This document shows, piece by piece, positions 1,498 through 63,767 of a stretch of DNA of 64,000 nt. The first letter of the stretch is position 1; each line of letters opens with the position of its first letter. Position numbers and translations under genes: made by a program. Below the pieces are notes generated by a model. The model worked only from the letters and a program-made list of their open reading frames with translations. It searched no databases and was not told where the DNA came from. This stretch comes from Octopus vulgaris (Eukaryota): the NCBI GenBank assembly GCA_951406725.2, contig OX597823.1:24490001-24554000 (forward strand), given 5' to 3'.

Positions 1498-1665
1498 TTG
1501 TCACAAAAGTTAACTGTGGAGCACCAGAAGATGTTGCTGGTGCATCTAAATCCTATGATACTACTACCTATAAATCTGAAGTGATCTATACTTGTCGAGA
1601 TGGAGAAGAATTAAAGGCAACATGTAAAGAGAATGAGAAATGGGCTCCAGCAGTGTCTTGTAAAG
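1498..1665 (+). CDS. Exon A1: compact Sushi/CCP domain (V-subtype), 168 nt
   Basis: cacttccag|TT...TGTAAAG|gtaatg; encodes [55 protein letters not shown] (C-x-x-P, YTC, C-x5-W, terminal C). Not in the ORF track in this frame. Confidence 0.9.
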
Positions 1666-4600
1666 GTAATGTAAATAGGTTCTCTCTTTTTGACTCTGTC
1701 TTGGTAATTTTGTTTTAGCCTTGTGTTCAAAGTTTGTCAGAGAAAGTCTGATTGTGTCCATGAAAATTTCCATTGTTTGTGACTGGTAGGAGGGTCAGAG
1801 CTGGCTATCCTCAGACAAGAGACGTTCCTAAATGCTTGCAACACAGTGGGCTTCATTAAAGATATTGAAAAGCCAAGTAACAGTATTAATTTGGTTGATG
1901 GATTAAGTCTGCCAAACAAGAGCAGGATATGAGGAAGTGTGTGCTCTCCAGTAGTTTTCTGCATAGTTCCCTTCCACCAAATTTCATTCAAAATCTTTAC
2001 TAATGAAGCAGATTTTTGACCATGTAGCCATAAGTCCAGACAGTACCACATTCTTGTTAAGTAAACTTATTACTTCCACAGCTCTACCTCAGCTAACCTA
2101 GGTCATTTTTCTCTTAAATTCTGCCCTCAGGTTTTTCCCACATATTTTGTTTCATCCTCTGGAACTCTATACAGTACAATTCATTGAATTCTTCTTTACT
2201 AGAATTCTGCAATCATCCAAAACTTTTGTTGCACTAATGGTCATCCATTCCACCAGCTTTCAGCAGGAAGATTTTAGGCAGTATTATTAGCTCCAAAACT
2301 TGACTCCATTTTGTGTTGTTGACTCCCCTACCCTTACCTGGCTGCATTTGAACTGAAAGCATGAAGAGCCTGAATGCATACCATAAAGCATTTCTTTCAG
2401 TTTTCTAATTGGTATTCAGGTTTAGATTTCAAAAGAAAAATTAGAATGATGTTGCAATTCTCTTGAATGTTGATAGATCTTTATCTAAAAGTAATTGGAA
2501 AACCCCACCATCAAAAACCACCATGAACTCCAAGGACAAGTGTCCTCTCCATTTAATATTCTTTCACAAACAGGTTTTATGCACCATGGGACCCATCCAC
2601 TCTCACATCACTTTCAATAATTTTCCTTGAGAATATCTTCCTCTCCATCTTTATCTTCTTTACAAGTGAAACTTTAAAAATATAGATTAGGGATTGACTA
2701 AAGAGGAAAGTCCCTATTGTCAGACCTTTCAAACCTCATCCATCAAACAACCTCTTTTGCTATAGCTAGCATTCAGAGGAAAACGATCATCTCTGCTCAG
2801 TTAAAGGAAGATGTGATGAGGTCATAATGATGGACTAGAATAACAGCTGGATCTGTCTACACACAACACCTGCTGTTTGACATAAATCAACAAGTTTATA
2901 ATAACTGGACACTGAACAAGTGCATGTAAAATTAATTTGTTCCACTATGAACATGTTGCACAGCACTCTCTGTTAGAACTTTTATGAGTACACTTTATCT
3001 TGGTTTCATATAGTTATTTGATAACACTGCCAAGGATTCCAAGAAGTTGCTCATAGTATTCTATGGCCAAATTTTCTTTGAAACAAATTTGTCTCCTCAT
3101 TCACATCAAACTCCAGAATATCCCTAAGAATATCGATGATTTTCCCCTCAATTAGTCTTCTATAGATTACAAGCATGTAATGCCCATTAACGACATTGCC
3201 CAAGTCAAGCTTGATCTGGTATACTTAGGATTACATTAGGTAATTTGACCTTCCCATTTTTAAAATTGTGGCATGTGATTGAGAGAGATTTTGTTAATAT
3301 ATCTGACATGCTGGGCATACATATAGCAAGCTGCCCCAGTGGCTGGCCAACAGTAAATGTTGAACTTAATATTATCAGCTAACAGATTAGACACAGTTGA
3401 TCCTATATCATTATATTATGTCTGATTAAATACAACCACCTGGTCCTTCAGATGCTTACTGTGTTGTTGGTGGACAGTATTTGGTCCAGTGTATTAACAT
3501 TGGACCATTACATTAATAAACAGGCACATTGACCTACAGTTGCTCTTGCTGGACATGGACCACAGGTTACCATAGAATTCATGACATAGCTGTTTCTCTC
3601 ACAACTAGCTTATAAGAAAATATAAATACTACCATTACAATGTAATCAATTATGGATGCATTATTTAAGTACATTCCCAAAAGTATTTAGAAAAAGCGAT
3701 GAGTTAATGTCTTTCTGAAGGTCACTAATTGTCTATGTAAAGTGAACTCACTTAAACTGAGAATCAAATCATTGACTCACACCGTTCAATCCAAATTTGT
3801 AGTAGTGGAAAATACTCAGGGTCACTTTCTGCATAAAAAACAAATAGGAAAATGGCTACTTATTGAACCAAGTTGTGATGACTAATTAAAATTACACCCT
3901 CAGCAGCTGGTAAAATCATTATGCTAATCACTTATTCTGGTCATTAAATTCAGAAGAGAAAACCTCTTAAAGATAATCACTTTTCATCTCACTAAAAGGG
4001 TAATGTTGATGAAATAAAATTTTCTAGCTTGTTACATGAGGTTGTGAGTGTCCACAAATCCCATCTAGATGTACTACACCTTTCATACTCCTCTCACTTA
4101 TGAAACAAGCATTAGTCAAGTACAGAGTTTTACTCATTTTAGTGTACCCTCACTGCAGAATGTGTTATGAATATTGGTAACATCAACAATAATTATAAAT
4201 ATTCATGTTGGTGATGGATTGAGAGAATCATCAGAACATCAGATGAAATGTGTTGTGGTACTTGTTCTGGCTCTTTGACATTTGAGTTCAGATTTGGCTG
4301 ATATCAACTTTGCTTTTCCAGAGACAATAAATTAAAATACCAATCAAGTATAGGGGCCAATTTAATCAATCAGCCTCAAATTTTTGTCCATTTTTCTACA
4401 TTAGAAATTATTGATGTTGATTTTGTTTATTTTTTTTGTTTCAATCTTACTTTAATTCTAGCTACCATGATCAGTTTTGTGAAAGTAAAAGGTGCAATTC
4501 TGGATGTACCTGGGAAAACATTGTGGAGTAAGAAAAATGTATCAGCAGAAGCCTGTGCAGAAAAATGTTTGTCTGAAAAAACTTGTTTATCATTTGAAAT

Positions 4601-7600
4601 AACAAAGGGAAGTCGAAAATGTTATTTATCAAATGTGGCTGCAGCTTCCGTCAAGAAAATGAAAGCAGCCAAAGACAGAGATTACTATCAACAAGTAAAA
4701 TGTAATTATTTTTTGCGTTTCTCTTTTCCTCACTTTCTGAAATTTGTGATTCCATTTGTGCTTCATAGTTTATAGAAAACCATTTCTGTAAAGACATTGA
4801 CAGATTTATCTATAGGGACAGACATAAACACATTCCTGAAATAAGAAATTTTAGGAACTATAATTACTGTTAGGGAATCCTCACAATACATTTATTTAGC
4901 TTGAACACTTTCCTGTATTATCTTTTCAATTGGTTCTTTTTTGTGTGTAAGAAAGGAAACACTTGTCATTTTCCTTAAACATGAATAGTAGTTGTAGTGG
5001 TGGTGGTGGTGGTTGTGGTTTCAAATTTTAGCACAAGGCTAGCATATTTGAGGGAAGTTTTAGTTTAAACCACCATCCCCAGTTCTTCACTGGCATTATG
5101 TTGTATCTTCCCTGGAAGGATGAAAGGCAGTTATCCCTGGCAGAATTTGAATTTGAAATGTATTGAGTTGGAAGATATATAGCAAGTTAGCATGGCATTT
5201 TCCTCATCATTTGTTATTCTCATCCATAATATGATATATAAAATAACAAAAAAATGTAATGCTAATCTATTTAGTTGTGTTTTCCTGATATGTTTGCAAC
5301 ATTTTTATGGTTGGATGCCCTTATCACCAATTGTTTTACCAAACCTCTGCCTTACTTAATACTGACAAATGAACAGGTTGTGGTTTCAAAGTGACAAAAA
5401 TATTTTGACACAAATTAAATTCAAATGTTGGAGTGAAACTAGCAGTTTTTGAGTGTTCTTAAATGGCTAACAAACATCTTCCATGCTGAAATTGTTTTTG
5501 CTTCAGCACATGATCTCAGATCAAGTCACTTTCTATGCAAGTACATCTCCATAATAGTATATATATGTACATGCATGGACACATACACACATATTTGTAT
5601 ATTATATATGTGTGTGTGTGTATGTACACATACATATATGTATGTATATATGTTCAATTAGCATCTATCAAATCCACTCACAAGGCTTTGGTCAGCATGG
5701 GAGTATAGTAGAACTTGCTCAGGTGGGCCACAAAGTAGGGCTAAAACTGGATGACATTTAATTATTAGTAAATTACTTTCCTCAAAAGACTTAATTTTTT
5801 TTTTATATATATTTCTTCCAAATCCTGCATGGCAGATAAAATAGCAAACTAAGGAACAAATAGATATGCAGTTATTTCCCACATATATGGGAAATATATA
5901 TGCAGTCATTTTTCCAATATATGGGAAAGAGATATGAAGTCATTTTTCCCATATAAGGTCTGATTACCAGTATCTGGACTGTTGCCATAGTAACGAAGTT
6001 AAAGCACGCAAAGTGAAGCACACAGAGTAGCACAGATTGACCTTGAACTCTGCTGTGCATGTGCACTAAGTTTTATCGCTCTAGATCATCTCCACTGCTT
6101 CCAGCAAAGCTTGGAAGGAAGGTGTTTAGCATGTAATCATCACATTGAGACATGACAGAGAACATTGAGCTGAGAATCTGCATCAAATTTTGCCGGAAGC
6201 TTGGTGATATCTGCTCAGAGGCCTACACAATGTTTTCATCTTGACACGATCAAGGAGATCTTGTGCAACTGAAACCTGAGTGTCATTTTGGTCAGCTGAA
6301 AGCAGTTTTGGCACAAACTTGGCAGACACGCATCTCACACCCAAATCTTCAGTGATAATGGACTGAACTGAACTGTAACTAACCTGCACATCCTCTGATA
6401 ACTCATGGATGGTGATTCAACAATTTCCCCTCACATCTACAATGCTTTTCTCAGTTCTGCTGGTTGTAGGTCTCCTGAACATTTGTCACTATCGACATTT
6501 TTTGTCCAGCCTGGAAACGTCTGAAACACTTGTACATTGGTGTGCAGCTTATACACTCCTCTCCATACACTTTCTGCAACTTTGCATAGGCCTTTGGGCA
6601 GTATCACAATTTTCTCTTACATGGTCAAGGTGACGATCATGCCATACACACTTTCCTTCCAAGCACTGATGTACACAGTAGAAGTGAGCTATAATGTTAA
6701 AATTTAGTGCGCATGCACAGCAGAGTTCAAGTTCAATCTGTGCCAAGCAGCTTCACTTTGCATGCATTAGCTTTGTTACTCTGGCAACAATCCGGATACT
6801 TATTGATCAGATGTTGGATGGATGGACATGTGTGTTATAAGTACATTTTTAAAACACGAACACTACAAACTGACACAAAACTTATGCCTTTATTTGTATG
6901 CTTTCTGAGTTCACATTTTACAACCTGATGCAATATGATCAATATTATCCACTTGCTAATTACATTTGTGTCATTTACTTATGGAAGTAGTTCAATAAAT
7001 ATTCTTATTTATTTGTATTTAGTATTTTTGAGAAGCAACCATATTATTTCAGGTCAATAAAATGAAATTATAATCAAGTACTAGGGTTGTCTATCCACCT
7101 TCCTTTAATTATTGCTGGTCTTTTGCCAAAATTTTGAGCATTTGTTTTATTGTTGTTATTGTTTGTGCTCTTCTTCATCATCATCATCATCATCCTTATC
7201 ATCAATCTGGGCCTACAAAGAGCAAAGACATGGTATGAGCAAACTCTAAAAGGAGTCACTTAAAATGAAAATTGCAAAATCCTGTGGGATGTAATGATCC
7301 AGTGCAATCACCTGACAAGATATCGGAAACTGAACATTGTTGTGTTGAATAGAAAAGAAAGAACATGTATCATAATCAGCATAGCATGCCCTGATATAAA
7401 CAGGATCAACATGAAAGAAGGAAAAATAAACAACTATGACAATTTAAAATGGGAAATACGATGGTTGTGGGATCAATGAAGAGAGTAGTCATGATACCAA
7501 TAGTAATTGGTACACTTGGAAGTATCAGCATTCAACTACCAACATGGCTGAAAAAGATCGGTGCAAGAGTGAAGATAGAACAAAAATCAACATTGCTTGG

Positions 7601-13700: not shown

Positions 13701-16700
13701 AGAATATAATTACTATATTTTTCAGGTTCAGTAGAGGATAAATTTCTTAAAATTACAAATGTTTTTCTCATCGGACCAACTGTTAAACACTTCTTTGAAG
13801 ATTTCTTCATATCTATGAAAATATGCAGAGAAGGTAGTACCTTCTTCTGGTTTATAGCTGAATTTTTCATTTGAGTCTGCTACACTGTCAAGCAAGTACA
13901 AACCTGAAGTATTTTCAAACTCCCTCAGCATTAATTCCAGCAATTATTGGTTTAGTTGTTGTTGCTGTTGTAGTTGCTGCTACTACTAGTTGCAATGGCA
14001 ACACAGAGGCCAATAAGTTATCCATGTTAAATGATTCTTTGTTTAGTTTCATACTAAAATGTAATTTAAACATCCAATGCAAGCTTTGAACAACTCATCG
14101 CCACTTTTATATCCTTGTCGTGGATATATACTGTAATAAAGCAATGGGGAAGGAAGTATATACACGATGCACTACTATTACTATTATATGAGATTCAATG
14201 CTCTATATCAAAGGATCATAGTGAAGTGCTACCAACACAAACTGCCAATTTCTCACAGTTCTTCAATTTATAACAATGAGTGAGTCACTTTAGTCACTTG
14301 GGGGTTGGTCGGAATCCTTCCACAACACATATATACATACATGTATTTATATGTGTGAGCAAATTTCTTCAGTTTGTTTCTCACAATATGTTTTATTGTA
14401 ACATTTTCTTAATCTCCTCATTCTCACCCTCTTCCTAACGTGCACACATCATTGATGTCAGTTTTTGTTTTCAATTCCAGCTTACAACAAAATAGACTGT
14501 GGAACACCAAGAGACATTGCTGGTGCATCAAAGTCCTACAATACCACCAAATATAGATCTGAAGTGATCTACAAATGTCCACGGGAAGAAAAACTAGTGT
14601 CGAGATGTGAAAAGGACAAAAAGTGGACTGTGGTAGATTCTGCTTGTGAAGGTAAAACAAATAGATTTTCTCTTGTTAATTCTCTCTATCTAATTTTTAT
14701 TTATCTTTGTGCTAAATGTCTTCTGTCAGAATGGGACTGGTTAACTCTATGGCAATTTCCACCATGATTGTGGATTGTAATCAGATAAATATACAGAAAA
14801 TATAAGTGCACATGATATACACTTGAAAAAGATGATGATGTTGATGATAATGATACAATCCTCCTGATTCAGGACTACTTCAATTTTGACCTATGAAGAA
14901 AACCTATGACCTGAAATCACTGTTTACACTGCTGATTGGATATCCTCAATAAATGTCATTCTTTAATCAACAGGTTTATACAGATTTATCCCATTAAGTC
15001 TTGAAAATTTTGCCACTTTCACCCTATTTCAATGAATTCACACAAGGACAATATATCTCTCATCACTCTCATTTTCATTTACAAGTGAAACTTGACATAA
15101 AAATGAGTTATCAAACAAACATGGAAGTCACAGTCCTTAGACCTGTCAGACTTATCTACCTTGGACTTATTTTCCTTTAGCTTCAAGAATGTAATATTAT
15201 CAGGGCTAGTGGTTGGTATTTGAGTAGTGAGAATACAATATTGAGAGAGCCATTTATTTTTGTCTTATCAACAACATGGTGACCTGTGTAGTGCTGGTGC
15301 TATGATGAATTACACATTATACAAACTGAGAGTGGATGGTGTTGTCAATGGCATTCAACCAAGAAACCATGCCAAATATAACATACAAGTGAGAAGTGAA
15401 ACTGAAATTTAATAATAATTTAAAGGACAGTACTTTCAAATACAAACTGAGTTACTTACTACAAACTGTCCAGTCAAGGCCAGCAGCTTGAAAATTAGAC
15501 ATGTTATGATAATAATGAAGATATACATATACGTACTTACATACATTCATACATACATACATACATATTCATATTTATATTTATATATATGTATGTCATC
15601 TCATCAGGGTAACAAGCCAAAGTCATTTATAAATATTTAACCCTTTTGTACTTAAACCAGCTAAAATATTCTAACTGTTTCAAGCTAAAACTGGTCAGAT
15701 ATGGTCTTTCATAGCTACCTTACAGTGTCATTTCAAAATTAAGCAATCACATTATTGAAATCTCAAAGCTATGAAATAATGCATGATTAACTTAAAATGG
15801 GGTCAATACATAAGTTTCATATTTGACAGAATAATCTAAAATGCTTAATGGTTAATGAAGCAAATAGAAAGAAAGCTGAGAAGAGGAAATGTAAAAAGGA
15901 AGAGGTAGCAAGTGGTAGAGAGGAAAAAAAACAAACAAAAGGGAAATGGCTGAACAATATAGTAGTAAAGAGGATAGAAAGTAAAGGTATACTAGAAAAT
16001 AAATAAACATATAAATCTTTGCCTTTTACTTGTTTCAGTCATTAGACTACAGCCATGCTGGGGCACCTCCTTGAAGAATTTTAGTTGACAGAATAGACCC
16101 CAGTACTTATTGCACATTCTTGGAGCATACTAGCTTCATTCATCTCTAGTCTTTGCAGATCATCTCCATTCACAGTCCACATCTCACTGCCATATAGTAT
16201 ACTTGTTTCTACACATGAACATACAATCTGCCTTTCACTCAAAGAGAGAGATCTTTTGTTGCTAGCAAAGATAATAGCTCTCTAGGCTTTATCTCATTTT
16301 ATTAATCAAGCAACTATACATTCAGAATATCCTACTCTGCTGCTAATTAGGTCACCCATGTAACAGACACTGTCTACAACTTCCAGGAGGCTTCCTGGAA
16401 AATCCAATTCCTGTGTGTCCTTAATATTTACTGTTCCTGCACATCTGCCACATTACAAAGACTACTTTCTCTGTTAACCTTCCAGTAATTCCACTGCACC
16501 TCTTATATGTCTATATGTTGCACAGAGTACAGCATATGGAATTCCTACCAACACCTTTCCTACTTATTTAACAGGGCACACACATAATATACATGCAACA
16601 TTCTTGTCATTTTCTGTTTTCAATTTCAGCTTTTGAAGAAATCGACTGTGGAAATCCAAAAGACATTGCTGGTGCAGACAAGTCCTATGAAACTACTACC

Positions 16701-19700: not shown

Positions 19701-21793
19701 ATGAACTAAAAGTTAGAGAGGAAGCTATAATGGGAGTAACAAAAGAGCTTATTTGGTATATTTTGCTTTATGAGTTCAATAAAGGCAACAACGCCATGGA
19801 AAGTGCAAAGAATATTAATGCAATATATGGGGATCGGACAATAAGTGCAAGCCAGTGTCTATGGTGGTTCCAGAAATTCCAAACCCAAAACTACAGCCTA
19901 GAAGACAATCCTCATCCTGGAAGATCTGTAGATCTCAACAAGGACGTCCTACAAACCCTGGTGGAACAAAATCCCATCGTAACTGTTGAGGAACTAGCAG
20001 AGAAGCTTGGATGTGGCAAGTCAACCTTTCATGAAAACCTGTATGCCATCGGAAAAGTCAGCTAATTGGGTCAATGGGTTCCTCGCAAACTTTCCATGTC
20101 TAATCGATCACACAGTATGAATGAGTGATTTTCTTGCTGTCTCATTTCACAAATGAATGTTTTTGGGACTGAATAGTGACTGGTGATAAGAAATGGGTTC
20201 TCTATGAATATGTCAGGCACTGATGAGAGTGGGTAGGGAAAGGAGAAGCACTGCCACCCCAGGTGAAAGAAGATCTTCACCCATATAATGTAGTGAAATA
20301 TATAGTCTGTACAATGTGTTGATTTGGTTGCATGTATGTTATTACAAGAGTTCATACAGAGATGAAAGAATAAATACAAGATCTATATATTTACTACACC
20401 CACATAAGGTGTTATTACATGTTTGGTGGGATATAAAAGGTTTAGTCCACTTTGAACTTTTAAACCCAAATCAGATGATAACAAAGGACATCTACAACAA
20501 GCAGCTCGAACAGCTTAAATCAGCACTAGAAGGGAAACGACCACAGATAATGCTCTAACACATACAGTGAGGATGACATTCCAAAGGCTGGAGCAGTTTG
20601 AATGAGAAATGATGCCCAACCCGCCATATTCACTGGACATTACCCCATTTCCTTATCGTTTATTCTGCAGTCTTCAAAATCATTTGAACGGGAGAAATAT
20701 GAATTCTGTAGATGAGGTTCAAGCAGTAATAGAGGAGTATTTTTTGTCACAGACAAGTGAATTCTGGAAGAGGGGCCTTGCAAGTCTACCAAATAGATGG
20801 AAGAGCATTGTGGAAAATGAAAGAGAGTATATTTTAGAGTACAAAAGAACTTTGTTTATCTTAAATTTGAAAAATAGAAGAAGTATAAAAAAAAAACACA
20901 TTTTAAGTTAGGAAATATTATCATTAATAATATTGCTATCAATAATAATTATAACTATTCTTGTTGTTAAGGATAATACATTGACAGAATCATTTGAGCA
21001 TCGGACAAACTGTGTTATAGCATTTGTTCAGGCATCAGAGTTCAAATGCTGTTGATGTTAACTTTACTCTTCTAGGGCCAATGAAATATGATACTGGTCA
21101 GGATTAGTAGGCAATTTCATTGATAAATTCCAGCCTCAAAGTTTTGTCTTAATTTCTATGATGGATTATCATTTATTTTGCTGTAGGTGTTATTGTTTAT
21201 TGGTTTCAATTTTACTTTAATTCCAGATACTCAGATACATTTTGTGAAAGTAAAAGGTGCAGCTCTTGCTGTACCTGGCAAAATATTTTGGAATAAGGAA
21301 AATGTAACAGTAAAAGGCTGTGCAGAAAAGTGTTTATCTGTCCCAAATTGCTTATCATTTGAAATAAATAAAGTAAATGGGAAATGTTTCTTATCAAAGC
21401 AAGCTGCAAGTTCCTCCAAGAATATGAAAACAGACTCAAGCAAAGATTACTACCAACGAGTAAAATGTAATTATTCTTTGTATTTTATTATTGAAATTAT
21501 CCTCTCCTCTTCTTACGAAATTTGTGATTCCATTTGAATTTCTTTGAATAATTATGGACAACTATTTCTGTAAAGACATTGATAGGTTCATCTATAACAC
21601 TAAGCATAAACATTTTCCTGTAAAAGAAAAACAATATTAAGAACTGTAAATACTCCTAAGACATTGTCATACAGCATTTGTTCACCTTGAACATTCCTGT
21701 GAATGTTTTCAGTTGTTTGTGTGTGTGTATTTCTGTGTCTGTCTGTGTGTAAGAAAGGAAATTATTGTTCTTTTTCTTAAAACCAAATGGTGA

Positions 21794-28511: not shown

Positions 28512-28549
<38 letters not shown>

Positions 28550-49000: not shown

Positions 49001-52000
49001 TGTTAAACATGGAGGAGGATCTGGGGTGGGGTGCGGGCTATATCTTGGAAATCCATCGGTCCAATGGTTTCTTTTCATAGCAGAATTAATAGTCAAGACT
49101 ATTTACGCATTTTATCTGATCAAATTCATCCTATGGTTGCAGAACTGTTTCCAGAGGGAAACACAATCTTTCAGGATGATAATATACCAATTCGCACAGC
49201 TAAAGTTGTTACTAAATGGCATGAGGAACATTCTAGTGAAGTTGAACTTCTTATCTGTCCACTATAGTCCCCAGATCTCAATATTTTTGAACATTTATGG
49301 TGCATTTTAGAACAATAAAGTAAGGAGTCAATATCCTTCACCATCATCACTACAAGAACTGGAGACTGTTTTAGCTAATGAATGAACAAAAATTCCTTTG
49401 GAAACAATTCAAACTTTGTATGAGTCCATACCTCATAGAATTCAAGCAGTAAATACTGCCAAAGGTGGTCCTACCCCATATAAAAATAAATTTGTTTGAA
49501 ATTTTAAGGTGTTTCCATTATTTTGTCCAACCCCTGTATATATAGTTTTATATATCTCTATATGTATTTGTATATGTACACACACAAACTAATAGTGAAA
49601 AAAGGGGAGTTAAGATGCAAATTGTTTTAATATTTCCATTGAGGATACAGCACTTAATGTCCACTTTTCCATGCTAGAATTCAGACAGAATTTGTTGAGT
49701 TGAATTATCTATGGCTGGATGCCCTTACTGTCACCAATCCTATCCAGTTTCCAACTAAGTTAATATTTCCCATGACCAGATGGGTTTGCACAGAATATTG
49801 CAAACAAAGTACATGATGGTGACACTCATTTACAACTATCTCATGGAGTCAAAACATGGAAGCATTAACACTCACACACACATACACACATGAAGGACTT
49901 CTTTCAGCTTCCATCTACCAAATTGACTCACATGCATTGATTGGCCCATAGCTGTAGTAGAAAACACTTACCTAAGGTGCCATGCAGTCAAACTGAACCC
50001 AAACATCTTATCACATGATCATGCCACCTTCTCCCCCTCTTTATCATCATCATCATTTAATACCCTCACTAGCATGGGTTGAACGGTTTGACTGAGAACT
50101 GGGCAGCTGGGGAGCTGCCTCAGGTTCCAATTTGATTTGGCATTGTTTGTATGGCTGGATACCAACCACTCCAAGCGTGTAGTGAGCAATTTTTACATGC
50201 CACTGGCATGTGTGCCAATTATGTAACACCAGCATCAGCCATAGCTATGATCTCACTTGGCTTGACAGGTCTTCCCATGCACGGTATATCACCAAAGGTC
50301 TTGGTCACTTGTCATTGCCTCTGTGAGGCTCAGTGTTCAAAAGGTGTTTTCTGCATGCCACCAGCATGGGTACCAGTCATCTGGCTCTGGCATCAGTCAT
50401 GACTACGATTTCACTTGGCTTGACAGATCTTCTCAAGCACAGCATATCACCCAACATTCAAAGGGTGCTTTCTACATGGAGCTATCATGAGCATTTGAAA
50501 GGCAGCAACTTTGAATAAGAACTGATTCAGGTTGATTCAACCTGTCCAGTTTGCACATAAGCATATTATGGATTAAAAATTATGGTTTATAACTGTAACA
50601 TTCTTCACTCAACTTTGTGTTTCATACAATACTCTGTAGTATTCAGAAGCAAACTGTGCATTTACTATTCAATCAGGAGTACAAGGGAAATTACATGGAT
50701 TACACAGTTCACTCTAATTATCTCTTGATTACCAGTCATCAATCTAGTGAGCCAAGTTGTGTTATCACAGAATAGTCAAAAGGGAATTTGCCTGGATTTC
50801 ACTGTCACTATGCCTCTGAGTTGTGTGTGTGTTAGGTATGTATCTATACACACATTGAGTAGGTATGTATGTCTATGCACATACACTTATTTGTATGTAT
50901 ATGTACATATAACATATGAGTGTAAATTACTTCAATTTCTTTCACTGAATGACTTAATATCTGAAATTGTAAATATTTCAAGTGTGTGTGTATGTGTGTG
51001 TGTGCGTGTGCACATGTATGTATGTATATGTGTATATTTGTATTTATATCTATGTGCAAATGACTTCAATTTGATTCACTAAAAACCTTTCATTCTCCTC
51101 ATTCTCACCCTCCTTTATCTCTTCATTTTCACCCTCTTCATAACATATATTCAACGGAATTTCTCTTTTCAATTTCAGCTTACTCAAATATTAACTGTGG
51201 GCCTCCCAAAGACATTGTTGATACATCAAAGTCCTACAAAGCCACCACCTATAAATCCGAAGTACTTTATACTTGCTCAAATGGAATACAACTAAAGTCA
51301 ATATGTCAAAAGGACAACAAATGGACTCCAGTAGGGTCTTCCTGTAAAGGTAACATAAAAAGCTTCCCTTCTGTTGTCTCTGTTTAAGTAATTTTGTCAA
51401 ACTTTTGTGTTAAATGTCTTTGCCAATAAAAGACTGGTTGGTCCATTACAATTTCCTCAGTGTTTGTGACTGGTGAGAGGGAGACATGAAATTATACTCA
51501 GACAAGAGACTTCTCCAGATAATTGCAAGTGTAGTGAATTCCATTAATATTACTCAAGAGCCAGATAATGCAGTTAAATTTGGTGATGGATTAACTTTGC
51601 TGACTAAGAAATTGAAGTCTACAAACTTGTCACCAATTGGCTTCCAAAACGTTTCCCTCCAGTACTTTTCATCTTCAAGGATTCATTGCGAAGTAGATAT
51701 TTAACCGCACACACAAAACTCTACCCAATACAACAATCTTGTTAAGTAAACTATTGGCTCATTAGCTATACTTTACCTCATCCTGATACACTTTTTTAAA
51801 ATTTCAATCCTGCATATTATATTTTCTGAAATCTTGAGGATTGCATCAGGTTATATGAAATACACATTTTAAAGATGTTTAGGAATGACTGAGGGAGACA
51901 TTGTTTATGGTTCTAACATATTACATGTGCACAAGCTACATGATTTGACAAAGCTTATCTCTTGGTGTAATCTGTTGCCTTATTCCCCACCACCACCTAG

Positions 52001-55000
52001 CCTTCAGATGGTCTTGGTGATGGTGATGAACACTATTTGATCCAATGTTAATATTTATATTACAGTAGCAAAGAATGACTTTGACCCAAAGTTGCTCAGG
52101 CTGAGCATGAACCACTTTAATCTCATGTATGTAGGAGGGAATGTGACCTGAGAATTTCATGACTAAGTGGTTTCTGCCAGGGATAGCTTATTAAAACCTA
52201 TAAATACCATCTCATTGTAATCAATTATGTATTGTTTTGTTTAAGTATGTGGCTGAACATAATTAGAGAAAGCATTGAGACTGTGTGGTATTCATCTTTT
52301 TCTCAAGGGCACTAGCTGTCTATGTAACGTGAACTGATTTAGACTGAGAATCAAACACTGATCAATGACTCACACCATTCAATCCAAATTTATACTAAAA
52401 GAACAACTATAGAAAAATACTGAGAGTCACTTCCTGCATGGACAACAAACAGGAAAATGGCTACTTTTTGAATGAAGATATTATGATCAGCTATAAATTT
52501 ACTCTAATTCATCATTAAAATAGCCTGATAAAAATTTTGGAAGAGACTATCTTATAAACATAATTGCTTTTCTCTTTCTATCACTAAAAGTTAAAGTTTG
52601 GTGACTTCAAATTTTTCTCCTTACTATATTAAGTTGTGAACATCCACATTTACTACATATTTATATTTATTTACTAGATGAAGATGAAAGTCAGATCATA
52701 TTAGCTCTTCAAGGCAAAACATTACAAAATCAGTGGAGTGATGCCTTGACTAGCCATATTTACTTACATCCTTTTATATTCTGGGCTCAAATTCTACCTG
52801 GATGTACTTCACTTTTCATTCCTCTAAACTTGATTAAACAAGCTCTGTTCAAGAACAGAGGTTGATAAATTTTTTTGTATCCTCACTGCAGGATTTGTGG
52901 CCTCGTGTTTAAATTGGGAACCATTATCATTAATATTGGTAACTTCAACAATAATTATGATTCTTCTTGTTGTTAAGGGTGTTGGATTGACAGAATCATT
53001 CAACTGACAGACAAAATATGTTGTGGCATTTGTTCTAGCAATTTTATTTTTGAGTTCAAATCTTGTTGATGCTAACTTCGCCCTTCCTATACCAATAAAA
53101 TAAGCTATCAGTCAAGTGTAGAGGCTAATATAAATGGTCGGTTCATATCTAAAAATTTAGCCTACTTTTTATGTTAGGAATTGCTGCTGTTGCTGTTTTT
53201 CATTAACCTAAATTTTACTTTACCTTTAGATCCTCTGCTCCATTTTGTGAAAATAAAAGATGCAGCTCTGGATGTACCTGGGAAAACAGTGTTGGATAAG
53301 GAAGATGTAACAGAAGAAGAATGTGCAAAAAAATGTCTGTCTGGAAAAAGTTGTTTAGCATTTGAAATAAATAAAAAAAATAGAAAATGTTACTTATCAA
53401 AGAAATCTGCTGCTACCTCCAAGAAATTAAAGGGAAACAAAAACAGAGATTACTACCAACGATTAAAGCGTAATTATTCTTTGTATTTTATTATTGGAAT
53501 TCTCTTTTCTATTATTTCTGAAATTTGTGACTCCATTTGTACTTCACACTATATAGACCCCAATTTCTGTAAAGGCATTGACAGGTTTACCTATAAGGCC
53601 AGATATACACACATTCCAGAAATAAGCAATATTAGGAAATGTAAATACTGATAAGACATTCTCATACAACTTTTATTCACCTTGAACAATTTCTTGCATA
53701 TTTTTGATTGTTTTTATTTTATGTAAGAAAGGAAATTCTTCTTGTTTTTCTTCAGCCTGAGTAGTAATAGTATTACTAGTAGTTGTAGTGGTGGTGGTGG
53801 TGGTGGCTGTGGTGGTGGCATTAGCAATAACAGCAGCTTTTTCTTCATTTCTCCATGTTAGCATCCCTTAGTACTGTTACAACTCCATGTCTTAGCTCTA
53901 GTCTTTCTTGTTCATTATCCAATATTCAAAATAACAGAAAAGTAAAACCAATTTATGAAGTTATATATTTCCTATATTTTCTCATGGATAATATAGCAAG
54001 ATACCCTTTCTATCACCAACCATTATACTCAATGTAGTCAGTATATTTTCCCTGTGTGTGTGTGTGTGTGCAGAGTGGTATATTTATTTCTATATAACAA
54101 ATCAGAGCTGCATAAATCGAGCAATAAACATAAGATCTGACCCTTGAACAAGGACAAAAGACAGATTGCCATAAGATAAGGACAAACACACACATGCACA
54201 CTTGCAGGCACATACACACACTCATACATATGTATTTATATATTGATAAAAATGGTAAGACAACAAAAGAAAGAAAGAGACCTCGATATTATGTAAATAG
54301 AGGAATTTATCTGTAAATGTAATGTGTGACAATTATTCAGTAGCCATGATAAAACTCTGAGTTTCAGATGCCGAGGTGGAAATCCATGCCACCATCTCTT
54401 CAGTTATCCAGCCATCGGAAAAATGCTATGAAAAATGACTGTTATACAAAAGGAAATTACTGTGTGATTGACCATTATCAAGACAAAAGAGCTATTTGAA
54501 TGACTGCTAAGTAAGGGGGTTAGAATTTCATAGTTCTCGTGTAAGCGCGCATGTTCATACCTACACATTTGCGCCCGCACACCCACATGCATGTGCCTAA
54601 AAGTATGCATTCATCCACCCTCACTTGAAAACATACACATCCTCACTCTCATCATTTGCCAAATGTATATGTATATACATACAAACCCACACACATGCAC
54701 ACCATAAAAGTTCATACACACGTCTATATACACACAAGCACAAGAAAAAACAGAGCCAAGGGTAATAATACAGAAAAAGGCATAAGGGAGTATACAATGA
54801 GTAAACCACGTCTATATACGCACATACTCATATGCATGCACACACACACACACACATGCGCCTATATACATACATACCTGCACACATCTATATACACACA
54901 CACAAAAAGGATCATACATACGTCTATATGCGCACATACACAAGAAAAAACAGGGCTAAATGCAAAGAGACAGGAAAAAGTATAAAAACACTGAGTAAAA

Positions 55001-59833: not shown

Positions 59834-59895
<62 letters not shown>

Positions 59896-60257
59896 TGATT
59901 TCTTTCAGTTTGCGTCTACAAAATCCACTGACAAGGCTTTGGTTGGTCTCAGGCTATAGCAGAAGACACATGCCAAGTTACCACACAGTGGGACTGAACT
60001 GAGGACCATGTGTTTTGGAACCAAGTTTGTTACCACACAGCCATACCTGTACCTATGAATGTGGGTGTATGTGTGTATGGGTGTATATATGTATGCATGT
60101 ATATATGTGTATATATATGTGTACATATTACATGTATATCTATATATATACATCTACACATACATGTAGACTTATACATCTATATCTATAGAAATACATC
60201 TATACGTATACAGCTATACATATACATGTATACATATACATCTATATATATACATGC

Positions 60258-60309
<52 letters not shown>

Positions 60310-60318
60310 ATACATATA

Positions 60319-60366
<48 letters not shown>

Positions 60367-61124: not shown

Positions 61125-61162
<38 letters not shown>

Positions 61163-63767
61163 CATACACACATATATATTATATATATTAATCATATATA
61201 TATATATATATATATGTACATATGGCAAAAAATATTATTTGTCTCCTTTTATGGAAACAAAAGAGTTTATAGGACTGCAAAAAAGAAGTGCTCAAATGTA
61301 ATTGAGACAGAGGTAAAGAAGCATTCATCATAAAGTAAACATCAATTTCGAGTCCATGACTTTATATATAACACCATACCTCAAACATTGGTCATATATA
61401 AATAATTCCATGGTTTGTAAGCATATAAAAATATACATATACAAGAAACACATGATTTTAAGAATTTAACTTCTGTAAGGGGAGTAAAAAAAACCTTTTT
61501 TAAAAGTTTTTAGTCGATTGATATTTTGTTTTATCTTATTTGCACATTACATTGTTATGCACATTCACTCAATTTGGTACTCCCTCCATCAGCTTCATAA
61601 ATGTCAAATTTTCTTCCAAACTTTAAAAGAACTTTCAGGTTTTTCTCAAAGTCAATGGCTTGAATAGCCCTACTAGATGAAGTCATTTGAAGATGATATC
61701 CAAAGTTGCCTGAGACATGAAATTTTACATCTTCACAAGTATCTAACAACATTACTGTGTTTTCTAAGGTATTTTCAAACGTAATAGAAAATTCAGTTGT
61801 TTGGAGCACTTCAGAATAAGGTGGTTCTCTGCAATCCTAGAAGATTTTCATGTTAAATGTTTTTGTGATTTTCGAAACTATATTCAGTGGCTCAGAGATT
61901 CTGTTTCCGATTCTTTAAAAAAGTTTGCTTGATATTTCAAGGTGTATTCAAGAGGTTGAAAACTTGAAAAACCAATCGGTTGATATTGTCCTGTTATGTC
62001 TAATTGTTGAATTCATTGTGGTGTGAGATTAGGCTTGCTGCATATATTACAAACAGAAGCAACACTCTTAAATATTTAACACCATATTTAAGGGAAGGTT
62101 AAACATGAATACAAACATAAATCATCAAATTCTCACTGATAAAGAGACCAGGAATTAAGAATCAACTAAACTGTGATTGCTCGGCCATTACTTATCTTTA
62201 AAGTTTGCTCATTATTTGCTTGATTTGCTTGATGAAAGCTGAGTTTCAGATGCCATGAGGGATCAGGTAGATATCTAACACTAAACGACTTAACTGGAAA
62301 AAAAGTGTGAATCTGCAGCACTTGAGATGATGTTCTACTTTGTAGTCTACTCTCCTGCAAACTGGTTGTTTGGAAAAAAAAAGTGGTGTTCACATTAATC
62401 TTGCATGTCCCAATAGTGGTGTAATCATGATGGGGAACTGATCATTTAGTGAAAAAGGTTCAAATCCTAGGGCTCACTGCAATATAAAGAACAAGTTTGA
62501 AAAATTTTACTACCGTGTTATGGAGGGTGTTGCTGAATCACCAGATATGCATGTTCAACATCAAGAACCAGAAGTTATTTTCAGAACTTTGTTTAACAGA
62601 ATTTTGTATGAAGTTATTGTCCACACTGAGCAAATATTTAAAACACCATCTTTTAAAACCTTTTGGTTCAGATTTATCAGTTGTTGAATCCAAAGTTTTT
62701 CCATGCTTATGAAAGCATTTCCATCCATGGGTGTCTATGAAAACATACTGGATTTAGGTAGATTGAAATGCAAGGTAAGATTAGTTTGTGCTTCAAGTTT
62801 TGCAAAACAAGTGTCAAACCTCCAAGAAGGCACAGGCATAATATGGGAGTTTGAACTAAATCACGCTCTGGCCAAAGTAACAAAATTGTTATGTCTTTTT
62901 CTGATCATACCTGTCACATCTGATCCCATTGAGAAACGACTTTCTTCATTTAAGCAAATAAATAATTATATTACCTGTTCTCAAAGTGAAGAGAGATTCA
63001 GTAATTTGGTCTTCATTTCCATGATTAAAAGAACTTCTGAAGATGAAAGTAGAGTGTGGTGCTGATTTTATACCAAAGTGACCAATAAATTTGCCAATAA
63101 GTAATAAAGAAGTGAATTGATTTATGAATAAATTTTAAATAGCTCGTTATATTTAGGTTCTCTCATGTTCTCAGATTTCACTTATAACCAGTAATAGTCA
63201 TCATGGCAATCCCTTCACCAGGGTATTGTTAATGAGGGAACATTAAAACTAGTGGAGAGGATATCAAGCTCCAAGTGTGGCCTGTTAGTAGGAAAGCATT
63301 TTCACACATTAAAATTAGCATATCGCATTCAGCTTTTGGTGAGGAGGACAAGAAGGTTCCACTCCCTTAGAAATTGGCCTACATCATGGATTGCATGTTC
63401 TGGTTTCCAAATAACCTTCATTACTGATGTGAGTGTGTGCTTGTGTGTGCATGTGTGCATATGCGTCTGTGTGTGTATGCAAATGATTCAGTTTTATTTA
63501 GTCAATAACTTTTACTCTAAATTTGTTACTATCTCCTCATTCTCCCTTTCCTCCTGTCATAAACTCAAAATTGATATGAATTTCTCTCATCACTTCCAGT
63601 TCACACAATGCTTGATTGTGGAGCACCAAAAGATGTTGCTGGTGCATCTAAATCCTATGATACTACTACCTATAATTCTGAAGTGATCTATACTTGTCAA
63701 GGTGGAGAAGAATTAAAAGCAAAATGTAGAGAGAACAAGAAATGGGCTCCAGTAGTGTCTTGTAAAG
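1498..63767 (+). CDS. Internal part of a large multi-exon gene encoding a tandem (Sushi/CCP-PAN-PAN)n extracellular protein; 14 exons, 973 codons in window, both ends outside window
   Basis: 14 exons with AG/GT boundaries and lengths of 168-240 nt, all multiples of 3 and phase 1-1. All 13 junction codons are sense (GCT,TCT,GCT,GCT,GAT,TTC,GTT,GTT,GCT,GCT,GAT,CTT,GTT). Cys/Trp patterns are invariant across copies. Confidence 0.9.
4462..4701 (+). CDS. Exon B1: basic PAN/Apple domain, 240 nt
   Basis: ttaattctag|CT...GTAAAAT|gtaatt; C-x3-C-x5-C-x-SF-x8-C-Y-L PAN core ([26 protein letters not shown]) ending DYYQQVK. Confidence 0.9.
5952..6815. mobile_element. Non-autonomous mariner derivative with ~120-bp inverted ends (two 5' ends facing inward)
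   Basis: 5957-6075 is the reverse complement of ~6700-6812. The + strand has the transposase start [13 protein letters not shown] (6152); the - strand has [18 protein letters not shown]. Confidence 0.75.
7205..7790 (+). mobile_element. 3' end of an R4/Dong-clade (restriction-like endonuclease) non-LTR retrotransposon with (TAA)n tail
   Basis: Frameshifted KILWD..IQC...RK.NIVV...TCIII.IACP...LKWEI..LW...IPIVIGTLG motifs, followed by a TAA run at ~7723-7780. Confidence 0.75.
8400..9650 (+). mobile_element. Highly degraded L1/Tx1-like RT remnant
   Basis: IIERVEEK...[15 protein letters not shown] at ~9010-9085 resembles Tx1 ALINLDQSKAFDRV; downstream QG and YxDD-like remnants; boundaries approximate. 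Confidence 0.5.
10159..10392 (+). CDS. Exon C1: acidic PAN/Apple domain (DDD subtype), 234 nt
   Basis: ttttatctag|CT...AACCCAG|gtcagt; encodes [77 protein letters not shown]. Missed by the ORF track. Confidence 0.9.
11108..11612. mobile_element. MITE-like element with ~65-bp imperfect terminal inverted repeats
   Basis: tttcttaactagttgaagttcattacataagtatta (left) versus taatacttatgtaattagcttcagctagttaagaaa (right). Confidence 0.55.
12420..14327 (-). mobile_element. Decayed Ty3/Gypsy LTR retrotransposon (gag, RT and RNase H fragments)
   Basis: [11 protein letters not shown]...PYVDDILI...KCEFF...IRYLG; RNase H LLHFDP...ASDASEY..GAVI...[11 protein letters not shown]; gag [19 protein letters not shown]; PBS-like TGGCGATGAG at 14094-14103 (-); 5' LTR boundary tentative. 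Confidence 0.85.
14481..14651 (+). CDS. Exon A2: compact Sushi/CCP domain (AY subtype), 171 nt
   Basis: tcaattccag|CT...TGTGAAG|gtaaaa; [56 protein letters not shown]. Confidence 0.88.
16110..16570 (-). mobile_element. Degraded RTE-clade LINE fragment
   Basis: Similar to 48000-48360 (acatctgcca...aaagac and acaatct.cctttc blocks); RTE RT C-terminal region; boundaries approximate. Confidence 0.45.
16630..16800 (+). CDS. Exon A3: compact Sushi/CCP domain (AF/AY subtype), 171 nt
   Basis: caatttcag|CT...TGTAAAG|gtaaca; [56 protein letters not shown]. Confidence 0.9.
19661..20905 (+). mobile_element. Mariner element, transposase pseudogene
   Basis: TA+TTGGGTT TIR start; [15 protein letters not shown]...SLED.PHPGR; [23 protein letters not shown] and PPYSLDITP motifs; stops, frameshifts and an internal 110-bp insertion. 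Confidence 0.9.
20289..20398. mobile_element. 110-bp TGT...ACA element with 16-17-bp TIRs and 9-bp TSD, nested in the mariner
   Basis: cccatataa|tgtagtgaaatatatag...ctatatatttactaca|cccacataa; removing it restores GAT CTT CAC CCA CAT AAG GTG (DLHPHKV). Confidence 0.8.
21227..21466 (+). CDS. Exon B2: basic PAN/Apple domain, 240 nt
   Basis: ttaattccag|AT...GTAAAAT|gtaatt; core [26 protein letters not shown], ending DYYQRVK. Confidence 0.9.
21796..21915. repeat. Compound (TAG)n/(CAG)n microsatellite
   Basis: Direct inspection; shorter GTA/GTG-type tracts lie at the paralogous position after B1, B3 and B4. Confidence 0.95.
22250..22950 (+). mobile_element. Highly degraded Penelope-like RT remnant
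   Basis: Frameshifted remnants resembling AEVADL, LDxTLxL...YxKP and RIIWFNPPF..NV.TN (aggataatttgattcagttcatccttcaaactaaatgtcacc). Confidence 0.4.
23641..27094 (-). mobile_element. Non-autonomous Helitron (copy 1), interrupted by an RTE LINE
   Basis: Minus-strand 5' end A|TCTATATATATAAAA (27094) and 3' GC hairpin cgggcaatgccggg plus CTAG|T (23641); both terminal segments recur at 57950-58280 and ~60600-60845. Confidence 0.8.
23971..26420 (-). mobile_element. 5'-truncated RTE-clade (BovB-like) LINE, ORF decayed
   Basis: [14 protein letters not shown]...YHGISLL...PESQCGFR...[12 protein letters not shown]...[13 protein letters not shown]...LFADDAAL; APE C-terminal CITNTFF...HPRS..WHQLD...DCDTDH; C-terminal RIPKDIL. 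Confidence 0.93.
27719..27955 (+). CDS. Exon D1: second-position PAN/Apple domain (DK subtype), 237 nt
   Basis: tgtttcag|TC...AACCCAG|gtcagt; core [29 protein letters not shown], ending WDIYLTNP. Confidence 0.9.
28145..28284. repeat. ~140-bp imperfect palindrome (Penelope-type hairpin element, degenerate hammerhead core)
   Basis: Centre tggcacttatcaaa-g-tttgataagtgcca; outer arms ttattactatttagca...tgctaaatagtaataa. Confidence 0.8.
28544..28735. repeat. 192-bp near-perfect palindrome (95-bp arms, 2-nt loop, 1 mismatch) carrying a hammerhead-like motif in each arm
   Basis: Centre ccgatatg-tc-catatcgg; right arm aaaactgt-CCGATGA-acggcaacgg-GAAA-ctcagag-TA-acaggtttt. Confidence 0.9.
29128..29235. 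repeat. (TTC)n microsatellite
   Basis: Direct inspection; explains the poly-F, poly-S and poly-R ORFs. Confidence 0.95.
29610..29900 (+). mobile_element. RTE-type apurinic endonuclease fragment
   Basis: [10 protein letters not shown]...[16 protein letters not shown] resembles the RTE APE N-terminus. Confidence 0.6.
32732..32902 (+). CDS. Exon A4: compact Sushi/CCP domain (V-subtype), 171 nt
   Basis: atcacttccag|TT...TGCAAAG|gtaatg; [56 protein letters not shown]. Missed by the ORF track. Confidence 0.9.
33621..34100 (+). mobile_element. Octopus-type tRNA-derived SINE
   Basis: A-box-like gtggctgtgtgttaa and B-box-like ggttcagtccc; related copies at ~5660-5750(-), 26455-26620(-), 56228-56595(-) and 59895-60060(-). 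Confidence 0.75.
37561..37800 (+). CDS. Exon B3: basic PAN/Apple domain, 240 nt
   Basis: ttaattccag|TT...GTAAATG|gtaatt; core [26 protein letters not shown], ending DYYQRVN. Confidence 0.9.
37838..38112. mobile_element. Inverted-repeat (Penelope-terminal-like) element inserted ~40 bp after the exon B3 donor
   Basis: Arms 37872-37965 and 38020-38112 (aacaattgcagcatggaagg...ccttccatgctgcaattgtt); a single-arm relative lies at ~5365-5530. Confidence 0.7.
38170..38915 (+). mobile_element. Two tandem SINE/LINE 3'-end copies with (GAT)n tails
   Basis: ggcacgtaaaaagcacccactacact...ggcgttaggaag...ggacgttaaacgatgatgat at 38170-38475 and 38595-38915; relatives at 1-70, 46950-47160(-) and 50045-50460(-). 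Confidence 0.75.
39028..39105 (+). ncRNA. Minimal type I hammerhead ribozyme motif (Penelope-type)
   Basis: gcgg-CTGAAGA-aggcc...ggccc-GAA-Acatatg-T-A-ccgc: intact core, stem I gcgg/ccgc, palindromic stem III ACATATGT, GUA cleavage site. Confidence 0.7.
39225..39385. repeat. (TA)n microsatellite split by ggactgt; AC/AT low-complexity sequence continues to ~40345
   Basis: Direct inspection. Confidence 0.95.
39408..39458 (-). ncRNA. Minimal type I hammerhead ribozyme motif
   Basis: Minus strand agcttc-CTGATGA-tttcatttgaat-GAA-Acagttctagtcctg-T-A-gaagct: 6-bp stem I, intact core, stem III cag/ctg, weak stem II. Confidence 0.7.
40663..40945 (-). mobile_element. 3' end of an RTE-like LINE with (ATG)n tail
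   Basis: [25 protein letters not shown]...[16 protein letters not shown]...AMKDREVW, then a stop and an ATG-repeat tail. Confidence 0.75.
41780..41975 (-). mobile_element. Short dispersed repeat with variant hammerhead core (second copy at 60925-61130, + strand)
   Basis: 41873-41907 (-): gttt-CCGACGA-agagctccactt-GAAA-cg-TT-aaac; 60999-61034 (+): gttt-CTGACAA-agagctccgctt-GAAA-cg-TT-aaaac. Confidence 0.6.
42788..42975 (+). mobile_element. Octopus-type SINE (second family; also 55552-55760)
   Basis: ggcagtgagctggcagaatc...ctgagttcaaatt(c/t)...gactttgcctttcatcc, with A/B-box-like motifs. Confidence 0.7.
43735..44916 (+). mobile_element. Mariner (DD34D) element, transposase pseudogene
   Basis: [14 protein letters not shown] and QYDNAR[17 protein letters not shown] with 34 residues between the last two Asp; 3' TIR ...ggacaacccaa+TA; in-frame stops. 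Confidence 0.93.
45258..45491 (+). CDS. Exon C2: acidic PAN/Apple domain (DDD subtype), 234 nt
   Basis: tcttttcaag|CT (weaker AAG acceptor)...AACCCAG|gtcagt; core [29 protein letters not shown], ending WDTYVINP. Confidence 0.88.
45738..45927. repeat. ~190-bp imperfect palindrome 250 bp downstream of exon C2
   Basis: catgaacaggataaactatc / gatagtttatcctgttcatg and ctcaaacgcaggataatgc / gcattatcctgcatttgag arms, centre tggctagcca. Confidence 0.8.
46072..46926 (+). mobile_element. Non-autonomous Helitron (different family)
   Basis: 5' A|TC, 3' hairpin ccaggtaaaaccggg, then CTAG|T; no TSD. Confidence 0.65.
47700..48640 (-). mobile_element. Degraded RTE-clade LINE fragment
   Basis: Minus-strand remnants QFGF...[22 protein letters not shown] and GRPRQTWEE. 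Confidence 0.6.
48640..49538 (+). mobile_element. Tc1-like (DD34E) transposon, 5'-truncated pseudogene
   Basis: [15 protein letters not shown]...VWRKP...PTVKHGGGS...FQDDN...[11 protein letters not shown]; 3' TIR ...ttttgtccaacccctg+TA. Confidence 0.88.
51179..51349 (+). CDS. Exon A5: compact Sushi/CCP domain (AY subtype), 171 nt
   Basis: caatttcag|CT...TGTAAAG|gtaaca; [56 protein letters not shown]. Missed by the ORF track. Confidence 0.9.
53230..53469 (+). CDS. Exon B4: basic PAN/Apple domain, 240 nt
   Basis: ttacctttag|AT...TTAAAGC|gtaatt; core [26 protein letters not shown], ending DYYQRLK. Confidence 0.9.
54348..54408 (-). ncRNA. Type I hammerhead ribozyme motif in a short dispersed element (~54245-54540)
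   Basis: Minus strand gataa-CTGAAGA-gatg...catct-GAA-Actcagag-T-T-ttatc: intact core, stem I gataa/ttatc, stem III ctc/gag. Confidence 0.65.
55130..55530 (-). mobile_element. R4/Dong-clade RT fragment
   Basis: [33 protein letters not shown]...[13 protein letters not shown]. Confidence 0.8.
56725..56958 (+). CDS. Exon D2: acidic PAN/Apple domain (DK subtype), 234 nt
   Basis: cctttgcag|TT...ACCCCAG|gttagt; core [29 protein letters not shown], ending WDIYIVTP. Confidence 0.9.
57255..57730 (-). mobile_element. Internally deleted mariner remnant
   Basis: Minus-strand YSPDLV..F.LF motif near 57280-57320 plus N-terminal IKFC-like region; boundaries approximate. Confidence 0.5.
57950..60845 (-). 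mobile_element. Non-autonomous Helitron (copy 2) with internal SINE and ~340-bp tandem duplication
   Basis: 57950-58280 matches 23641-23970; ~60600-60845 matches ~26855-27094; 59255-59545 repeats at ~59600-59920. Confidence 0.75.
61555..62036 (-). pseudogene. Decayed coding fragment of unknown family
   Basis: The 84-aa ORF extends upstream through one TAG and one frameshift as complex protein-like sequence ([14 protein letters not shown]...[37 protein letters not shown]...). Confidence 0.35.
62183..63140 (+). mobile_element. Decayed hAT-family transposase remnant (copy 2)
   Basis: ORF 62703-63065 [46 protein letters not shown] matches the hAT dimerisation consensus (L.IP.TS...ER.FS.LK.I...R..M..ERL..L). 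Confidence 0.7.
63600..63767 (+). CDS. Exon A6: compact Sushi/CCP domain (V-subtype, close copy of A1), 168 nt
   Basis: cacttccag|TT...TGTAAAG|gtaatg; [55 protein letters not shown]; same one-codon-shorter length as A1. Confidence 0.9.

Follow-up and report, generated by a model that had tools for sequence, protein, structure and literature searches.

A 343-exon PAN and Sushi array in Octopus vulgaris, probably one gene for a predicted giant secreted protein

Introduction

Cysteine-containing segments of three families recur on the + strand of a 64-kb stretch of Octopus vulgaris DNA (C10, OX597823.1:24,490,001-24,554,000; hereafter the window), as seen by translation and repeat finding, and they raise the question of whether they are exons of a single gene, how far such a gene extends, and what its product would do. 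An initial annotation, made from the letters of the window, proposed a hidden giant bead-on-string gene of Sushi-PAN-PAN units. PAN and Sushi domains are extracellular modules: the Sushi or CCP domain has about 56-60 amino acids, four cysteines, and a conserved tryptophan, while a strict apple domain is distinguished by a third disulfide joining the ends of the domain. The N-domain of HGF binds heparin, and MIC4 and SML-2 bind galactose. Protein and carbohydrate binding has been suggested as a role of PAN domains (PMC9249922).

Exons of the window

Exons were located by stop-to-stop translation and repeat finding, with borders set by splice-site reading, and the window was placed in the genome by a search with one exon of each type. 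Fourteen exons lie between window positions 1498 and 63767, all on the + strand, and each of the fourteen has an AG acceptor and a GT donor, phase 1-1, a length divisible by 3, and four cysteines. Spliced together they give 2,919 nt, or 973 codons, in which one frame is free of stops and the others have 66 and 109; the 14 splicing exons and 973 stop-free codons of the initial annotation were thus recovered over the same span, all with GT-AG introns in phase 1. Six exons encode Sushi domains (type A) and eight encode PAN domains, four of them basic (type B, net charge +9 to +10) and four neutral or acidic (type C, -1 to -6), in the order A B C A A B C A B C A B C A. The proposed domain identities were borne out by Pfam, with all eight PAN exons passing the cut-off of PAN_1 (PF00024) and four of the six Sushi exons passing that of Sushi (PF00084); the other two fall just below it. 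A tblastn search with the 14 exons across the 64-kb window found no additional exon.

The first Sushi exon (A1, window 1498..1665; E 8e-5, above the cut-off) is followed by a basic PAN exon recognized by Pfam, splice sites, and charge (B1, 4462..4701, +9) and a neutral PAN exon (C1, 10159..10392). The one Sushi doublet consists of A2 (14481..14651; E 0.004, below the cut-off) and A3 (16630..16800). After it come B2 (21227..21466, basic PAN, +9), C2 (27719..27955, neutral PAN), the Sushi exon A4 (32732..32902), B3 (37561..37800, basic PAN, +10), C3 (45258..45491, acidic PAN, -6), which was placed by Pfam and splice sites and has an AAG acceptor, the Sushi exon A5 (51179..51349), B4 (53230..53469, basic PAN, +10), and C4 (56725..56958, acidic PAN, -6). 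The last Sushi exon, A6 (63600..63767; E 0.001, below the cut-off), starts 62.1 kb after A1, shows a flanking intron similarity of 86-92%, and is the first exon of the next 13-exon super-repeat. Exons A1, C1, A4, and A5 lack an early methionine in their frames, which would account for their absence from the open reading frame track. Two other elements were seen in the window: a broken element on the - strand at 24,050-26,460, inside the B2-C2 intron, with endonuclease- and reverse-transcriptase-like frames, which we take to be of LINE type, and a near-perfect hairpin at 28,538-28,741 with 101-nt arms, 97% complementary and 2 nt apart, possibly a small transposon.

Extent of the array

Genome searches with one exon of each type gave 112, 108, and 134 matches, almost all of them at 23.27-24.98 Mb on the C10 + strand, and the region C10:23,230,001-25,094,000 (1.86 Mb, with no N) was examined. 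Profiles made from the window exons were run over open frames of at least 25 aa, a procedure that badly decayed copies could escape, and gave 355 hits. Seven of them, with scores of -0.7 to 0.2 bits, were excluded from the count. Complete exons bounded by AG and GT, in phase 1-1 and all on the + strand, account for 346 of the 348 remaining hits in the 1.86 Mb; the two others, broken B and C exon fragments inside introns at C10:24,195.9 kb and 24,207.9 kb, were left out of the model. Four cysteines are present in 343 of the 346 intact repeat exons and five in the other 3, and the PAN exons of the region have four in 211 of 212 cases and five in one. The strict apple domain of the factor XI type, with six cysteines, is therefore not the form found here.

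The array proper (C10:23,364,742-24,983,168, + strand, delimited by profile hits) comprises 343 intact exons, 105 basic PAN, 105 neutral PAN, and 133 Sushi, the remaining three of the 346 belonging to a small upstream gene. These 343 exons join into 24,101 codons with zero stops, a single open frame that supports the giant bead-on-string gene of the initial annotation at a greatly increased size, the window being about 4% of the object. A basic PAN exon is followed by a neutral PAN exon in 105 of 105 cases. The periodicity had been called strict and is not: Sushi exons occur singly 73 times, as doubles 27 times (A2-A3 in the window among them), and as triples twice, and are absent in two places. 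Offsets between nearest neighbours in the array are mostly 13 exons or multiples of 13, and the window corresponds to one such super-repeat of 62 kb. The four cysteines are 100% conserved in the 105 B and 105 C copies, as are the cysteines and tryptophan in the 133 Sushi copies, and about a dozen basic positions of type B are kept in 70-100% of its 105 copies. One PAN exon, at array position 140 (C10:24,093,506-24,093,706), is shortened to 201 nt, keeps its four cysteines, and is 82% conserved in O. bimaculoides.

Ends of the gene model

Comparison of the array flanks with a small paralogue provided most of the terminal exons, all on the + strand. At the 5' side are an exon with an ATG and a signal-peptide-like sequence (C10:23,362,495-549) and a 30-nt micro-exon (C10:23,363,457-486). 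The 3' side has three exons of a GON domain (C10:24,990,060-331, 24,994,551-727, and 24,997,435-576), found by a splice-and-codon scan except for the middle one, which came from the paralogue comparison, and a last coding exon with a cysteine-ended tail (C10:25,002,974-25,003,050). Against a Pfam cut-off of 22.6 for GON (PF08685), the first GON exon scores 47.1 bits (E 3e-12) and the third 24.2 bits (E 4e-5); the first has a further, weak match to the collagen C-propeptide family (E 2e-4, short of the cut-off), a lead for end-to-end assembly. The full model (C10:23,362,495-25,003,050) has 349 coding exons over 1,640,556 bases and encodes 24,352 aa (~2.75 MDa) in a 73-kb coding mRNA with a single stop, at the very end. 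The predicted chain has a pI of 8.9, 1,390 cysteines, 13.9% lysine, a mean charge of +7.4 for type B, and 274 sequons. The window supplies exons 225-238 of the 349, residues about 15,620-16,592, an internal part of the model.

Hydrophobicity along the chain peaks at residues 1-26 (hydropathy 1.49), a stretch judged by eye to be a putative signal peptide and encoded by an exon that is conserved in the paralogue. Nowhere in the chain is a 19-residue window more hydrophobic than the N-terminal one, so that the model has no transmembrane segment or GPI tail. Extension of the flanks, advised with the initial annotation, thus yielded a signal-peptide-like start and a GON terminus and no membrane anchor. 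The 5' exons are putative, none of the 161 proteins examined covering residues 1-28. Each terminal exon, from the start exon and micro-exon to the three GON exons and the tail, is credibly present just twice in the region, once at the array flanks and once in the small paralogue, and the region scan found no internal copies of the start or end exons within the array. A scan of 1.57 Mb of introns for internal exons gave two weak candidates on the + strand; short first exons are invisible to such a scan. A signal-exon candidate at C10:23,274,135 was dropped once the conserved ATG exon had been identified.

The small paralogue (C10:23,269,851-23,294,202) is intact and lies upstream of the array. 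Its 9 exons encode 465 aa with a signal-like start, PAN, PAN, Sushi, GON, and tail; stretches of its introns align with both ends of the giant gene, and its GON domain plus tail has 11 cysteines versus 12 in the giant. The domain types of the proposed Sushi-PAN-PAN unit stand, and its order is better read as PAN-PAN-Sushi because the giant protein and the small paralogue both begin with a basic PAN. A gene of the NDUFV1 type (complex I 51-kDa subunit) at C10:23.310-23.334 Mb lies between paralogue and giant gene and serves as a synteny marker.

Splicing and selection

Contigs of four runs from four studies, presumed to be RNA, were aligned to window positions 7800-21700, which cover 3 of the 13 junctions of the window and 3 of the 348 of the gene. 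GT..AG joints, at depths of 2-13, connect C1 to A2 in three of the four runs and A3 to B2 in two of the four; the A2-A3 joint is not among the contig joints listed. The junctions proposed in the initial annotation are accordingly seen at two of the three places examined. Paralogous repeats at 90% likeness can supply such joints, and one contig at the C1-A2 joint agrees with A2 at all 167 bases compared, which speaks against an origin from a distant paralogue. Joints other than GT..AG and the depth peaks in the alignment are located in interspersed repeats and were set aside.

Between nearest paralogous exons, dN/dS is 0.45 for A (113 pairs), 0.66 for B (87), and 0.55 for C (93), values that indicate only moderate constraint. 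No two exons have the same DNA sequence. In a simulation of neutral decay, the fraction of exons keeping frame, cysteines, and splice sites was 31%, 11%, and 4.5% at 0.05, 0.10, and 0.15 substitutions per site; with 346 of 348 hits intact against the 4.5% expected at 0.15, chance is excluded. The dN/dS values and the intact count together indicate that the array has been maintained as coding sequence, though its surfaces drift.

Public records and relatives

The gene is not hidden in the sense first claimed: the public O. vulgaris model CAI9728795.1 (4,087 aa, named SVEP1-like) contains all 14 window exons at 100% identity and in order. Public O. vulgaris models match the array exons at about 100%, and at least 14 Octopus records, several of them named SVEP1-like, would be pieces of the one gene, the SVEP1-like label being a misnomer (four from O. 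vulgaris, three from O. sinensis, and seven from O. bimaculoides). Colinear orthologous pieces of the array occur in two other Octopus species. The O. bimaculoides fragments overall keep exon order at 82-84% identity, including the shortened PAN exon; XP_052826950.1 matches exons 144-200 in order in 56 of 57 segments, with a mean identity of 84%, and LOC106869402 connects the final repeats with GON and the tail of the model, reproducing its 3' end.

Word-based protein searches gave 4, 3, and 1 matches, which are seven named Octopus records and one unnamed. HMMER with a 279-aa fragment against 1.84 billion representatives gave 323 hits, the best 150 of which were used, with names obtained for 18 proteins plus listed cluster members. 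All three repeat types are matched by 16 of 161 proteins, namely 14 named Octopus proteins, one unnamed, and one cuttlefish protein. The secreted, lineage-specific candidate of the initial annotation is supported, as a cephalopod-restricted one. The cuttlefish protein (CAE1175485.1) reads PAN-Sushi-Sushi-GON, a layout like that of the C-terminal part of the giant, and is 66% identical to it in GON exon 1; its record looks 5'-incomplete. Among Atlas clusters, those with PAN+Sushi or GON+PAN come mostly from molluscs; their scores are under 0.9 and they are leads only. A literature search, based on titles and the starts of abstracts and covering few subscription journals, found no papers on the locus or the architecture. 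The domains themselves are known and parts of the locus stand in databases, while the single giant gene, its ends, and its architecture appear undescribed.

The closest solved relatives are the N-domain of HGF for type B and Toxoplasma MIC4 and the Sarcocystis lectin SML-2 for type C, all weak matches (E 1e-8 to 9e-3). An AlphaFold model of one protein (P0004), made with 8 sequences, has a mean pLDDT of 61 and a pTM of 0.33 and resolves PAN cores only, with no domain packing; Foldseek with this model returned PAN/apple proteins at low TM-score.

Comparison with known systems

The claim that the architecture is unlike that of any characterised protein agrees with domain content, which separates the octopus model from SVEP1, ADAMTS, and Dumpy. 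Dumpy is about 23,000 aa long (~2.5 MDa). In contrast to Dumpy, the octopus model has no EGF, DPY, ZP, or transmembrane segment and has 349 exons rather than 78; a C-terminal ZP and transmembrane segment, typical of the Dumpy/PAN-ZP class, is replaced by GON, tail, and stop, in O. bimaculoides as well. Dumpy is nevertheless the nearest working analogy, as a giant extracellular chain in Drosophila of hundreds of small disulfide modules arranged in EGF-DPY-EGF triads, with one distinct C-terminal domain (PMC2930355).

SVEP1 (polydom) is likewise secreted and has many Sushi domains, but the octopus model lacks VWA, pentraxin, EGF, and HYR domains and alternates Sushi with PAN pairs. It consists of PAN, Sushi, and GON exons only, and no VWA, EGF, or pentraxin family of Pfam is listed for the records named SVEP1-like. 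The octopus haemocyte marker svep1 was ruled out as the array gene; it is LOC115222969, with a von Willebrand domain (PMC9712504). ADAMTS9, ADAMTS20, and GON-1 share a long secreted repeat region closed by a GON domain, whereas the octopus model has PAN and Sushi in place of metalloprotease, disintegrin, and thrombospondin domains, and no metalloprotease or thrombospondin exon was found in the model or among the intron candidates.

With the N-domain of HGF, factor XI, MIC4, and SML-2 the chain shares the PAN fold and its four core cysteines, but it has no third apple disulfide, kringle, or protease, and it has 210 PAN copies versus their 1-6. The small, uncharacterised molluscan PAN/Sushi/GON proteins, the cuttlefish protein as recorded and the octopus paralogue among them, have comparable module layouts in 300-470 aa; in the giant the unit is expanded about 105-fold. 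Titin, of about 34,000 aa and 363 exons, and nebulin resemble the model in their hundreds of exons, bead-on-string form, and growth by super-repeat duplication (in octopus mostly by 13 exons), although they are intracellular sarcomere proteins with unrelated domains.

Proposed function

The array is probably one transcription unit and, given that it is, a role as a matrix tether is somewhat favoured. For the whole reading, in which the array likely is one gene for a predicted secreted bead-on-string protein of 24,352 residues that acts as a long multivalent tether in mucus or matrix, we put the chance at about even. The fullest form of this reading, held tentatively at a little under an even chance, has one 1.64-Mb, 349-exon gene encode 344 folded domains in a single 2.75-MDa chain that is fully secreted. 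Such a protein would exceed Dumpy in size and might be the largest of all soluble secreted proteins described, and its gene would come near titin in its number of exons. The gene would have arisen by ~105-fold expansion of a small PAN-PAN-Sushi-GON gene that persists beside it, and the product would be a micrometre-long polycationic filament cross-linking cephalopod mucus or matrix.

In the proposed mechanism the signal peptide, predicted by eye and hydropathy, would send the chain into the secretory pathway, where each repeat domain would fold on two disulfides. The 105 lysine-rich B domains may grip polyanions such as sulfated glycans and acidic mucins, as the N-domain of HGF does with heparin, while their neutral PAN partners may bind sugars or proteins in the manner of apple domains, and the Sushi modules would be spacers. 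Binding of polyanions or glycans by the PAN domains is inferred from the charge pattern and the weak similarity to the HGF N-domain and MIC4. The C-terminal GON domain and cysteine tail could anchor the chain or join chain ends. A secreted, anchorless, uncleaved chain with 105 PAN pairs, its extended length of the order of 1 micrometre by customary domain sizes, is most readily taken as a multivalent tether that would cross-link acidic glycans. The reported action of GON inside the ER (PMC3338439) speaks against this placement.

Alternative readings

One gene could instead serve as a library of in-frame isoforms. Skipping of blocks of symmetric exons would then leave the signal peptide and the GON end constant and produce numerous shorter secreted lectins or recognition proteins, Dumpy- or Dscam-like and perhaps used in immunity. 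Any repeat exon could be skipped in frame, since every one is phase 1-1, the copies are diverse (median nearest-neighbour identity 66-75%), and the reported alternative splicing of Dumpy (PMC2930355) keeps this reading alive. It is nonetheless unlikely: the GT..AG joints among those listed connect only neighbouring exons, O. bimaculoides keeps the same order of exons, and the three types follow a fixed grammar (C after B in 105 of 105) with no clusters of like exons as in a Dscam-type mutually exclusive array, the types alternating and neighbours splicing together. Another use of a single chain would be as a polyprotein precursor cut into many PAN-PAN-Sushi units acting as soluble lectins or cationic defence proteins. 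The unit exists free-standing as the 465-aa paralogue, the PAN pair is a module of other cephalopod proteins, and the lysine content of the chain fits a cationic product, but there are just 3 furin-type sites in the whole 24,352-aa chain, its domains abut with almost no linker, and there is a single terminal GON domain, which makes such processing improbable.

Similarly improbable is a division into several separate genes, each with unseen first and last exons. The annotations of O. vulgaris, O. sinensis, and O. bimaculoides all split the locus into separate models of 380-4,470 aa, and introns of the array, up to 19 kb long, could hide promoters. Yet the public fragments examined start or stop inside domains or run into intron sequence, terminal exons have no internal copy, and breakpoints differ by species, the break between exons 155 and 156 in the O. 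vulgaris models being read through in an O. bimaculoides model. A lumenal role, in which GON aids export from ER to Golgi and the repeats are a scaffold, is very improbable; ADAMTS9 itself is secreted, PAN and Sushi are generally known as extracellular modules, and the chain has no ER-retention tail at its end, against a report that the GON domain of ADAMTS9/GON-1 acts inside the ER (PMC3338439). An assembly artefact or decaying tandem repeat without product is refuted in practice. Long tandem arrays are prone to mis-assembly and this one holds two dead exon fragments, but it has no identical exons and no gaps, its orthologues in two other species are colinear, the 346 intact exons of the region compare with 4.5% expected, and spliced joints occur in contigs.

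Significance

Returning to the single secreted chain, if the array is one transcript it ranks among the largest protein-coding genes both in number of exons and in product, with a product lacking a membrane anchor, and questions arise about the transcription, folding, and export of a 2.75-MDa chain that would contain about 690 disulfides. Annotation would need repair, as the Octopus records noted above would be pieces of one gene, which bears on cephalopod expression and proteomics studies. The one-unit paralogue next door could be expressed as a compact model of the repeat and offers a rare before-and-after view of the evolution of a giant modular protein, and a GON domain outside the ADAMTS proteases becomes available for study.

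Related loci

Downstream of the model, C10:25.04-25.09 Mb has exons of another + strand gene, presumably for a VWA/cache-domain protein; two pieces were scanned and gave no Pfam hit. A third GON-domain locus, at C1:49.327-49.334 Mb, is perhaps an ADAMTS9/20 orthologue. Distant PAN exons occur at C13:19.92-19.98 Mb, with a B-then-C pair at C13:19.98 Mb, and at C13:76.17 Mb and C17:45.99-46.00 Mb. The PAN pair of the repeat also stands at the start of a 'zonadhesin-like' VWD-C8-TIL-VWA protein of Argonauta and of a WSC-domain protein of Octopus, and another Argonauta protein has it twice.
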